A stretch of 61,853 bases of DNA, the filler included, from Porpidia crustulata (Eukaryota), in NCBI GenBank assembly GCA_964255105.1. It is 9 parts of 9 records of this genome, joined end to end, with 100 filler letters (N's around TTAATTAATTAA, not from the genome) between each part and the next. Parts side by side here need not be neighbours in the genome. Positions count along the whole stretch, not along the records: positions 1 to 6,806 come from CAXUWE010001455.1; 8 more parts are not named here. One strand, written 5' to 3'. Made by a program: the position numbers and the translations under genes. The number at the start of each line of letters is the position of its first letter. Positions within the stretch are counted from its first letter, which is position 1. Below are positions 979 to 4,604 of the stretch, piece by piece. The notes beneath the pieces were generated by a model, which was not told the DNA's origin, made no database searches, and was given only the letters and a program-made list of their open reading frames with translations.

Positions 979-1859
979 CTACTGGTTTCCTCTCTTCGCA
1001 TCCTCCTCGTCATTCTTGGGTATACCAACCAACTTGGGTACCGTGACGGAATTAAGTTGGCGGAAAATCTATCGAGCACATTAGCACGACACAAAACCTT
1101 GGCTGCGGTCTCAGCCCCAGCAGATGGTGGCAGGCAAGCGGTGGAAATCCACTCACTTGCCACCACCACATGTCCCAAGTAAAACTCCACATCCACCAGG
1201 CCCATCCCTCGCCATAGTGCACCCACCACCAAGGGCTAAATAATTGCTCAACACTCACATTTGTGAAGCTACTATCCGGTAGCTGGCCATCCCATTTGTC
1301 TTCAACTTTTGTGATCTTTCCGGAAGCCTTGTCGTAGAAGATGTTAATCTTGCTACTGACGATCTGTTCCTTGCCGATGCCCTTGACTACATAGCGAGTT
1401 TTGAGATCCATTCCGATAGGATTGCCAGCACTAGTTACTTCATGGTGCAGGCGCTCGATCTCCTTGAAAGCACTTTGGAGTCCGTACTAAAATAGATGTT
1501 AGTAATTGATTGAGGGAGAGGGCTAGGTAGGCTTACCCATTGAGGCTCGTATTGCTTTCGACCTTCCGCCTTAGTTATAGGGTCCTCGAAGACGCCATCA
1601 TCAGCCCATAGTTGGAGTTTCTTCAACGACGGGCGTCCGGCAAACAGCTAATTACTGCGTTAGTCTCCATAAACCAAGTCGAGCGGATCTGGAAAAGGCT
1701 TACATCTAGAACACTTCCTACAAGAGTGTTCTGGTGCTCGTCAAGGGAGACGCCAGAGGCAGTCCTTATGTTTGTGTTCTCAATGTTTGCATCGACTTTG
1801 GGAAACGTCAATTCATTCTACTAGGTCTGATGAACAGTAAGAGACATACCGTTGGACAT
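979..1859 (-). CDS. Conserved fungal NTF2/SnoaL-like fold protein, 5 exons (1859-1850, 1795-1704, 1647-1537, 1486-1259 or 1486-1157, 1068-979)
   Basis: GT..AG introns join the ORF fragments into MSNVDANIENT...VGSVLDLFAGRPSLKKLQLWADDGVFEDPITKAEGRKQYEPQWYGLQ...GKITKVEDKWDGQLPDSSFTN-IFRQLNSVTVPKLVGIPKNDEEDAKRGNQ*. The 'W.DD.VFEDP...EGR' and 'GKI..VEDKW' segments are typical of the NTF2/SnoaL fold. Confidence 0.8.
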
Positions 1860-3237: not shown

Positions 3238-3759
3238 TTAATGATGATGACCTGCCGTGGCAACCTTCAAGATCTCATCCTCAAACCCGGGCACGTGTAT
3301 GAATGTGATACCAGCTTGCTCAAGTCTTGCCCTTCCCTTGTTTTCTCCAATAAATGTTTCTGGCTCTGCTACTCCAACATAGATTATCTTGATCCCACCG
3401 CTACCAGGTGAGTGTGTTTTCAAGATCATCTCAGTGCAGGGTAGATTTCCAATTGATCTCTTATTGCAAGGTTCCATTGTCGTATAGAGGGCCGTGTTCT
3501 CAGGCAGGACACTTCCAACCTCGTCGGCTAAAACTCCTTTCAACTCACTGAACTTCTCGAGACAGCATTGCTCAGCATGTGTATTTCCTGGTAGCTCTAA
3601 GGTGTAACCAGTCGATAGAATATGATTCGAAGTCTTGTCAAGAAGCACGGCTCCAACACAGAAGTTCGTCGGCTTTGGAGTGGACTTTTGCGCTAGAGTC
3701 AATGCGAGTCGCATATATGCTTCATGATCTTCAGGACTGATTGGCAGGGGTTCAGCCAT
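3238..3759 (-). CDS. Cytidine-deaminase-fold zinc enzyme, probable DRAP deaminase of riboflavin synthesis (Rib2 deaminase domain, stand-alone)
   Basis: Single exon from MAEPLP (ATG at 3759). Motifs FCVGAVL, GYTLELPGNTHAEQC and LYTTMEPCNKR...PC provide the HAE / PCxx..C zinc ligands. Confidence 0.8.
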   Translation of the reverse strand: MAEPLPISPEDHEAYMRLALTLAQKSTPKPTNFCVGAVLLDKTSNHILSTGYTLELPGNTHAEQCCLEKFSELKGVLADEVGSVLPENTALYTTMEPCNKRSIGNLPCTEMILKTHSPGSGGIKIIYVGVAEPETFIGENKGRARLEQAGITFIHVPGFEDEILKVATAGHHH

Positions 3760-4604
3760 GAACAAGGCCAGCTGTATTGAGAATTTGTTGGTGAGAATCC
3801 ATCGTGACTTCAAAAAGAAATATAAGAATGCGGAAGGATTCCGCAATGTCAGATCCTTACTTTGCACGCTTCGTACTCTTGACAACAACCGGATCAACAA
3901 CGACACGATTTACCAGCACTTCTGGGAATTTATCGATAGAATATGTCATTCAGGCACAGGAGATGATAATAGAATCTCTTCCAGGTTTCACCCGCGCCCT
4001 GCGGATAAAGCATATAGCCGCCGTTTCACCCTCGATCCAGGACCACGGAGAGATATGCGGCCAAAACAGAGCTGTGCAATTTACCAAAGCCTAGCTATTT
4101 TTTCCTACTATGTGTTGATCAAACAGCTCCAAACACTTTTAGCTTCGATTGTAGATGTGTTTGATTCTAATGTTCTATGTTTCCGGGCGGGTTGAGAAAT
4201 ATATGGAGAGGCGGCTCTGATTTCCCTCATAGCCTAGGAAAGCATTCAATTCCTTTCATCTACCGGATGGTCTCATTCAAACGGCCATGAAACAGCGCGT
4301 CAGCCACGTTCCTGTGGAAAAATTTCCCGAGGATGATGCTAGACTCAGTCTAAGGATAGACTTATAACAGCAAATCTTCATCCACTATCATTGGCTGTAA
4401 CGAATTCCGAGATCCTAAAACTGCAAGCTTCAACGTCAGCTCAAGATTCCCATCTGCAGATGCCCCTCCTTTCCCTTCGATCGAATGAGGGTATAAGTGA
4501 CGCTTTCGTTATTCGATATCATCGGAAGATCTCCTTTCTCGACAGAGAACCATACTGCGAAATTTGTTTTCATACCAAGATCACCTGAGCCTTGCATTAC
4601 TGTG

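Follow-up and report, generated by a model that had tools for sequence, protein, structure and literature searches.

Does the last intron of a fungal gene possess, besides its ordinary 5' splice site, a second one whose use would insert a tryptophan-rich segment into the encoded protein? The question is raised by a gene for a small NTF2-like protein on the minus strand of the stretch of Porpidia crustulata DNA analyzed here (the window; 61,853 nucleotides, filler included). Exon 1, in the revised form discussed below, spans positions 1850 to 1976 and is followed, behind a GTATGT donor at 1849 and an acceptor just before 1795, by exon 2 (1704 to 1795), whose translation agrees with the homologues. 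Exon 3 (LFAGRPSL...EPQW; 1537 to 1647) is identified by homologues and by a weak DUF2358/SnoaL_2 match, and exon 4 (76 codons; 1259 to 1486), which closes the NTF2-like core, by its translation, by homologues and by a structure model. The last exon (IFRQLNSVTVPKLVGIPKNDEEDAKRGNQ and the stop codon; 979 to 1068) is likewise backed by translation and homologues.

It is the intron in front of this last exon that carries two possible donors, both in phase 0: donor 1 (AAT/GTGAGT, the slash marking the exon-intron border; hexamer at 1253 to 1258) and donor 2 (CAA/GTGAGT; 1151 to 1156). They start at 1258 and 1156, respectively, and hence lie 102 nt apart, and they share one branch motif (CTAAT at 1084 to 1080, part of the GCTAAT that begins at 1085) and one TAG acceptor (1071 to 1069). 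Donor 1 corresponds to an intron of 190 nt (1069 to 1258), and donor 2 to one of 88 nt (1069 to 1156), the latter segment being the intron proper, which evolves in an intron-like fashion. Either choice keeps the reading frame and gives a protein of 176 or 210 amino acids, counted from an ATG at 1859. All elements of this arrangement had been proposed in an earlier sequence-only reading of the locus and were confirmed on the minus strand. The same holds for the 102 nt between the donors (the cassette; 1157 to 1258), the translation of which is free of stops and reads VSVEQLFSPWWWVHYGEGWAWWMWSFTWDMWWWQ, with 11 tryptophans among 34 residues (32%). Eleven of its 12 TGG triplets are in frame 0, stops are present in both other frames, and the donor 1 hexamer reads Val-Ser when the cassette is kept.

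That such an enrichment in tryptophan exceeds chance, as had been suggested, was borne out by the relatives of the gene (in-frame conservation, pN/pS ratio, and a length divisible by three) and not by the window alone. Protein searches combined with an exhaustive representative search yielded a set of 328 homologues, 42 of which were not evaluable. Among the remaining 286, the cassette is present in frame in 180, a share that is biased upward because the queries included the cassette; these comprise 41 spliced long forms and 139 read-through ORFs, i.e., unspliced ORF calls running from exon 4 into an intact cassette. The other evaluable homologues are 57 spliced short forms and 49 proteins that are cassette-less or otherwise arranged. 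The named carriers of the cassette belong to four classes of the Pezizomycotina (Lecanoromycetes, Dothideomycetes, Leotiomycetes, Coniocybomycetes). For comparisons at the DNA level, 80 related loci were taken from metagenome contigs; 58 of these (46 distinct) possess the cassette, 13 have a plain intron of 56-84 nt at the same position, seven are without an intron at the position of the last intron, and two are cut off.

The length of the cassette is always a multiple of three (93-108 nt): it amounts to 102, 105 or 108 nt in the 37 aligned sequences (window included) and to 93 nt in two further loci. The intron behind it measures 54-151 nt in the same 37 sequences, with its lengths distributed 11/15/11 modulo 3. 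Nucleotide identity is 0.61-0.94 in the cassette versus 0.49-0.81 in the downstream intron (0.49-0.65 in most pairs), and the identity of the cassette follows that of exon 4, as exemplified by the comparison of the window with its nearest locus L001 (0.81 vs 0.79). A test for selection on the cassette, proposed earlier in the form of a dN/dS analysis, was carried out by Nei-Gojobori counts in 16 phylogenetically separate pairs that cover 32 of the 37 sequences (L003, L010, L016, L023 and L031 were excluded). It gave a pN/pS of 0.23 for the cassette (binomial p 1e-36) and of 0.19 for exon 4, and values of 1.40 and 1.04 for the other two frames of the cassette. The ratios are also given for 15 pairs, without the pair L029-L042, because an indel causes this pair to be misaligned in exon 4; they then amount to 0.22 (cassette) and 0.13 (exon 4). 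Between the window and L001, 14.5 synonymous differences in the cassette are accompanied by 4.5 non-synonymous ones. Across the homologues, the replacements seen in the cassette are conservative (W/F/Y/L). Frameshifts, stops or a loss of tryptophan conservation in the orthologous introns had been named as observations that would speak against the idea; the orthologous "introns" keep the frame, the tryptophans and the 3n spacing. This comparative evidence shows that the cassette encodes protein and that purifying selection acts on it in the reading frame continued from exon 4.

The signals of both donors are conserved in the orthologues as well, and by this token both look functional. The donor 1 hexamer conforms to GTRAGY in 42 of the 46 distinct cassette-bearing loci. 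Its Val is encoded by GTA or GTG in 36 of the 37 aligned sequences, but only 27% of the other Val codons of the same sequences end in a purine; GTA is found at donor 1 in 22 of 37 cases versus 18 of 238 among the other Val codons. Furthermore, the sole donor of cassette-less relatives sits exactly at the donor 1 position. The Ser codon of donor 1 is always AGY, an observation that was dropped as evidence since the conserved Ser of a W-S-F motif is likewise always encoded by AGY. A GCAAGT (Ala-Ser) replaces the hexamer in locus L053 and in proteins P0142, P0148, P0157, P0177 and P0194, two of which (P0148 and P0177) also appear frame-shifted inside the cassette; a GC-AG type of donor is possible in this group.

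For donor 2, 42 of the 46 distinct loci have an in-frame GT (+1/+2) and a G at +5 in the homologous position, with each of the four bases occurring at +4 (examples are GTGCGT, GTGTGT, GTGGGT and GTGAGA/G). What follows the Val codon consequently varies between Arg, Cys, Gly and Ser, and the similarity of the sequences ends there. A fixed GT and +5 G next to a free +4 position are the signature of a 5' splice site and not of an amino-acid constraint. The full GTRAGT consensus at donor 2 is a property of the window alone; none of the 42 other donor-2 loci has it.

In the window, donor 2 is embedded in a predicted hairpin (1110 to 1183, minus strand) in which the 3' end of the cassette and the donor itself pair with the ~45 nt at the beginning of the intron behind them. 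Folding of the segment from 1275 to 1060 gave -86.8 kcal/mol (z -3.6), and in its dominant element donor 2 and the ~20 nt of cassette before it pair with the intron directly behind; the core stem joins ~1169-1149 with 1144-1124 across a loop at 1148-1145. For the 75-nt junction piece of the window, a folding energy of -40.0 kcal/mol was calculated (z -5.8; none of 200 shuffled sequences as stable), with eight of the nine donor positions paired. The same outcome of 0/200 shuffles was obtained for nine of the 37 sequences in all (the window, L001, L003, L010, L019, L021, L023, L047 and L051). Three more show a hairpin at the ≤0.05 level, and nothing of the kind was found in the other 25, which are mostly of Dothideomycete types (z near 0).

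The arms of this structure come in two types. Those of the Lecanoromycete type pair GGTGGCAG/GT with ACCTGCCACC, and those of the Leotiomycete type, although different in sequence, still pair with each other (CCTTGGGAG/GTGGG with CCTACCTCCCAGG); when the 5' arm of one type is combined with the 3' region of the other, 10-20 kcal/mol are lost. CAA/GT stands opposite GCTTGCC in the window, and CAG/GT opposite ACCTGCC in L001. The 5' arm is constrained by coding, and the intron arm must therefore follow it. A stable, conserved stem with co-varying arms is thus predicted across the exon-intron junction in the window and eight further sequences. This hairpin should lower the use of donor 2 and could make it conditional. 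No Rfam family was matched between positions 900 and 2000 of the window.

Are both splice products found among records that resemble transcripts? Seven fully spliced, contiguous ORFs from Logan/JGI (P0080, P0083, P0087, P0091, P0095, P0098, P0291) join exon 4 to the last exon; they derive from lichen-type fungi, reside on contigs of 0.9-3.1 kb, and have lost every intron. Their exon 4 is identical to that of cassette-bearing genomes at 64-73 of 76 residues (84-96%); none of the ORFs could be tied to the species of a cassette-bearing genome, the best match being 73 of 76 residues. Use of the upstream donor in close relatives follows from these ORFs. Outside NCBI gene predictions, the other arrangement, in which the cassette is joined to the last exon, was found neither with a profile of 16 long forms nor among proteins of fewer than 117 amino acids searched with a query of cassette plus tail nor in the 80 metagenome loci. 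All 40 spliced long forms for which a source is shown are NCBI gene predictions. One long form, P0104 from Acephala macrosclerotiorum, is also listed under Logan and may represent an mRNA contig or an intron-less gene. The single sequencing run for P. crustulata covers the locus as one identical contig without joints; it is probably the source of the genomic DNA sequence and carries no information on splicing.

Exon 4 is directly joined to the last exon in seven of the metagenome loci, none of which was accepted as evidence for splicing. Three of them (L048, L049, L067) are genomic intron losses in which the last intron, with any cassette, has disappeared while the intron before exon 4 is kept; L068 is, in comparison with L055, a transcript or a copy from a cassette-less species; and L063, L066 and L070 are likewise uninformative.

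As a consequence, the claim that the gene has two isoforms stands in part. The cassette is constrained, the signals of the two donors are conserved, and donor 1 is the one used in mRNA-type ORFs of relatives, but none of the transcript-type records found contains the donor 2 junction; it is the use of donor 2 that we infer. Taken together, a coding cassette, two conserved donors and short mRNA-type ORFs make two isoforms the best reading of the data: the gene would produce two protein forms, one of them with an extra aromatic segment.

Some lineages depart from this pattern. In the lichen-type clade of L012-L015 (proteins P0003, P0006 and P0122), the cassette ends in CAG/GGAGGT, with GG instead of GT at donor 2 (the cassette end is at ~2330 in L012). 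Nevertheless, the cassettes of L012 and L015 differ by seven synonymous and nine non-synonymous changes (p 0.005) and are thus still constrained, so that the cassette can apparently be maintained without donor 2; in this clade it may be expressed by intron retention or by another route. In L012 the frame stays open throughout the 156-nt intron; in L015 a stop interrupts it. In-frame stops within the cassette occur in three of the 46 distinct loci (L023, L024 and L026/27), and therefore the cassette is dispensable in some lineages. In the decaying loci (L023, L024, L026/L027 and the degenerate L071), there are in-frame stops or the donor is gone. The rest of the gene is intact in all lineages with a decaying cassette except L024, where an additional stop in exon 4 suggests a pseudogene copy.

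We consider it probable that the last intron is a conserved two-donor system in which two functional 5' splice sites compete for one branch point and one acceptor. Splicing from donor 1, with its full consensus, would remove 190 nt and give the short form, probably the major one; splicing from donor 2 would remove 88 nt and leave a 34-residue segment, rich in tryptophan, inserted behind the folded core and ahead of the C-terminal tail. In the lineage of the window, the stable hairpin formed with the adjoining intron would bury donor 2 and thereby hold down or condition its use; the proportion in which donor 2 is used is a part of this proposal that we infer. The cassette itself would act as an aromatic membrane-interface anchor or as another kind of hydrophobic interaction module.

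This proposal has to be weighed against other explanations of the same sequences. The cassette might be translated from transcripts that retain the intron, without any use of donor 2, the product then terminating in the Trp-rich segment and, behind it, a short tail that is not conserved. The clade that lacks a GT at donor 2 and keeps a constrained cassette fits such a route, full retention in the window would add the cassette and 34 more codons before a stop is reached, and a stop within a retained last intron need not trigger decay of the transcript. However, a GT and +5 G that are invariant right at the end of the cassette in 42 of 46 loci, next to a free +4 position, would be unexplained if this site were never spliced, and neither does retention account for hairpin arms that co-vary around donor 2; we regard it as unlikely. 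Conversely, the long form could be constitutive in P. crustulata, with the upstream GTGAGT serving merely as Val-Ser codons and the short mRNAs of relatives stemming from cassette-less species. The window differs from the 42 other donor-2 loci in having a full GTGAGT at donor 2, an 88-nt intron is nearer in size to the other introns of the gene (50-56 nt), the gene prediction in 40 NCBI records is the long form, and the short mRNAs come without a cassette-bearing genome of the same species. Against this stand the retention of GTRAGY at donor 1 with its otherwise rare GTA codon, the burial of donor 2 in a hairpin of -40 kcal/mol, the 84-96% identity in exon 4 that links the short mRNA-type ORFs to cassette-bearing genomes, and the position of the splice site in cassette-less relatives, which is exactly that of donor 1. 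A constitutive long form therefore strikes us as quite unlikely.

Decay of the cassette in other loci (L023, L024, L026/27) and the lack of long transcripts among the transcript-type records also fit the view that the lineage of the window makes the short form only and that its cassette is a relic, silenced too recently to show decay. Yet the excess of synonymous over non-synonymous differences between the window and L001 (14.5 vs 4.5) and a donor 2 that is not only intact but has even been improved to consensus speak against a relic, and we judge it to be improbable. Least tenable, and in our view nearly excluded, is the notion that the TGG-rich stretch is a non-coding, G-rich piece of intron, for example a splicing enhancer or another RNA element, with an incidental tryptophan frame. 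The stretch is indeed rich in G and T (42 G and 31 T of 102 nt), and part of it lies in the conserved RNA hairpin. This notion is effectively refuted by selection that is specific to one frame (0.23 vs 1.0-1.4), and it is further contradicted by the conservative W/F/Y/L replacements, by length changes in steps of three only, and by the lack of an Rfam match.

As for the protein itself, the best Pfam matches, to SnoaL_2 (PF12680) and DUF2358 (PF10184), reach 15-20 bits and thus stay below the gathering cut-offs of 24.3 and 27. A search of the PDB sequences with a profile gave one match with an E value of 0.026, which was taken as chance. For the homologue P0001 (85% identical), AlphaFold2 was run with an alignment of 16 rows and gave a model whose core has pLDDT values of 82-92, and a Foldseek search with this core retrieved 195 PDB chains at E≤0.001, headed by limonene epoxide hydrolase (LEH), the Dcr3/NsrQ isomerases and PhzA/B. 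A confident core and its placement among NTF2-like enzymes uphold the designation "NTF2-like" at the level of the fold (an alpha+beta cone). According to the model, the gene product thus belongs to the NTF2-like fold class without a scoring membership in SnoaL_2 or DUF2358.

The start codon assumed earlier, the ATG at 1859 to 1857, is probably wrong. An ATG at 1976 to 1974 lies 117 nt upstream in the same frame and opens a 42-residue N-terminal extension (MRYPAIPTTLQRSF...) that contains eight K/R, eight S/T and no D/E residues, and upstream of which in-frame stops are found. The extension aligns with the N-termini of six homologous, fully spliced ORFs with the pattern MR[LFY]P...Q.R.M; an N-terminal extension is thus present in six of the seven spliced short-form ORFs described above. 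We suggest that 1976 is probably the true start, although two alternative starts (1976 and 1859) are possibly in use; most MAG annotations also begin at the ATG equivalent to 1859. Since the extension has the composition of a mitochondrial presequence, the protein is probably imported into mitochondria, and the short form, which had been described as a soluble protein, is probably not simply cytosolic.

What could the cassette contribute to such a protein? It contains no K or R, Pfam has no match within it, and the cassette by itself, used as the query of a protein-atlas search, yielded nothing usable. In the P0001 model, a disordered linker (residues 141-152, pLDDT <50) precedes a cassette helix (159-178, pLDDT about 60) that runs into a helix of the last exon (181-197, pLDDT 73-81). 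The Wimley-White interface sum of the cassette is -16.6 kcal/mol, whereas the best 19-mers encoded by the other exons reach +1 to +4 on the same scale, and its Kyte-Doolittle mean is slightly below zero. These calculated properties agree better with an aromatic segment that seeks surfaces than with a classical membrane-spanning one, and an aromatic membrane-interface anchor is plausible; the cassette could just as well serve self-association or dock into the NTF2 cavity. Together with the low-confidence helix, the interface preference is what supports the earlier idea of a switch between a soluble and an anchored form. As to the suggested dependence of long-form translation on the supply of Trp-tRNA, none of the present results speaks for or against it. 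The membrane-proximal external region (MPER) of gp41 is a short helical stretch crowded with tryptophans at the membrane interface; it has no sequence relation to the cassette and serves as a lead for its function only. A bolder version of the two-donor system, which we offer tentatively and hold to be rather doubtful, views the locus as an ancient hairpin-gated switch that predates the split of the four classes and conditionally provides a mitochondrial NTF2-like protein with a Trp-dense segment for tethering to a membrane surface or for self-association, the condition being, for instance, a change in temperature, helicase activity or transcription rate. If true, it would constitute a new type of aromatic anchor installed by regulated splicing, and the cassette would rank among the most tryptophan-dense conserved segments known.

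Functional alternative splicing that alters the C-terminal part of a protein or its destination and persists across wide phylogenetic distances is rare in fungi; peroxisomal targeting is one reported example, and SKI7/HBS1 is another (PMC3597508). Those cases concern other genes and PTS1 tripeptides or whole domains, whereas the segment considered here is an internal, Trp-rich cassette. Closer in kind is PTC7 of Saccharomyces cerevisiae and other budding yeasts, where, as outlined in PMC7491326, retention of an in-frame intron supplies a transmembrane helix, the protein from spliced mRNA is mitochondrial, and the event is conserved among species. As is proposed for the present gene, a single gene thereby yields two proteins, one of which has an additional hydrophobic segment encoded by otherwise intronic sequence. 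PTC7, however, relies on intron retention near the 5' end and on a classical aliphatic helix, in contrast to the proposed competition of 5' splice sites near the 3' end and a segment with 32% tryptophan in the present gene, which is unrelated to PTC7 and for which different destinations of the isoforms are a prediction. Anciently conserved alternative 5' splice sites in one intron that give two proteins are reported in the same source (PMC7491326) for SRC1/HEH2 of the Saccharomycotina. There, too, two nearby 5' splice sites reside in one fungal intron, but their distance is 4 nt and the choice between them alters the frame in which the downstream exon is read; the two of the window, spaced by 102 nt and each in phase 0, would add a cassette instead. 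With respect to the hairpin, a parallel is provided by human tau (MAPT), in which a stem-loop at the junction of exon 10 and intron 10 hides the 5' splice site from recognition by U1 snRNP and thereby determines the ratio of the isoforms (PMC2483273). Self-complementarity across an exon-intron junction over a 5' splice site is common to both; in the mammalian gene it governs inclusion versus skipping of an exon, while here the site under the hairpin would have its competitor in a donor farther upstream in the intron, and the consequence for splicing is a prediction. By analogy, the present case is of the same kind as PTC7 and SRC1, in an unrelated gene, with another cassette chemistry and with a candidate RNA gate.

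Full-text literature searches returned no description of this family, of the cassette or of the splicing event, and the terms "SnoaL" and "NTF2" were absent from 12 of the 39 supplementary files of a Cladosporium fulvum splicing study. Protein-changing splicing that is conserved at the level of classes is rare in fungi, and the reviews consulted name only a handful of examples (PTC7, SRC1, SKI7/HBS1, FES1). The case considered here would add one that can be recognized from genome sequence alone. The cassette is extraordinary in that about one residue in three is a tryptophan, and the hairpin over donor 2 amounts to a built-in candidate regulator. For this uncharacterized family, the two isoforms would provide a handle on localization and function, and tractable carriers of the cassette are available in Aureobasidium, Cladosporium and Elsinoe.

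It should be noted that the public annotations of this gene are in conflict, with 40 NCBI records showing the long form and 57 records over all sources the spliced short form. Most gene models begin at what is probably the wrong ATG, some are fused to a neighbor, and one has the cassette out of frame. The latter is P0106, the record from Umbilicaria vellea; in addition, P0082 shortens the cassette and P0070 reads through the intron. The neighbor upstream of the gene in the window (3238 to 3909, minus strand) is a cytidine/dCMP-deaminase-like ORF with an HAEQCCLEK motif. Several NCBI MAG records (P0007, P0010, P0011, P0017 and P0093; PF00383/PF10451) join a deaminase-like and a Stn1-like neighbor to the gene; these look like annotation fusions, with conserved synteny. 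Even strains of a single species, Aureobasidium pullulans, are annotated differently, P0050, P0051 and P0054 representing the long form, and P0111 and P0311 the short one.
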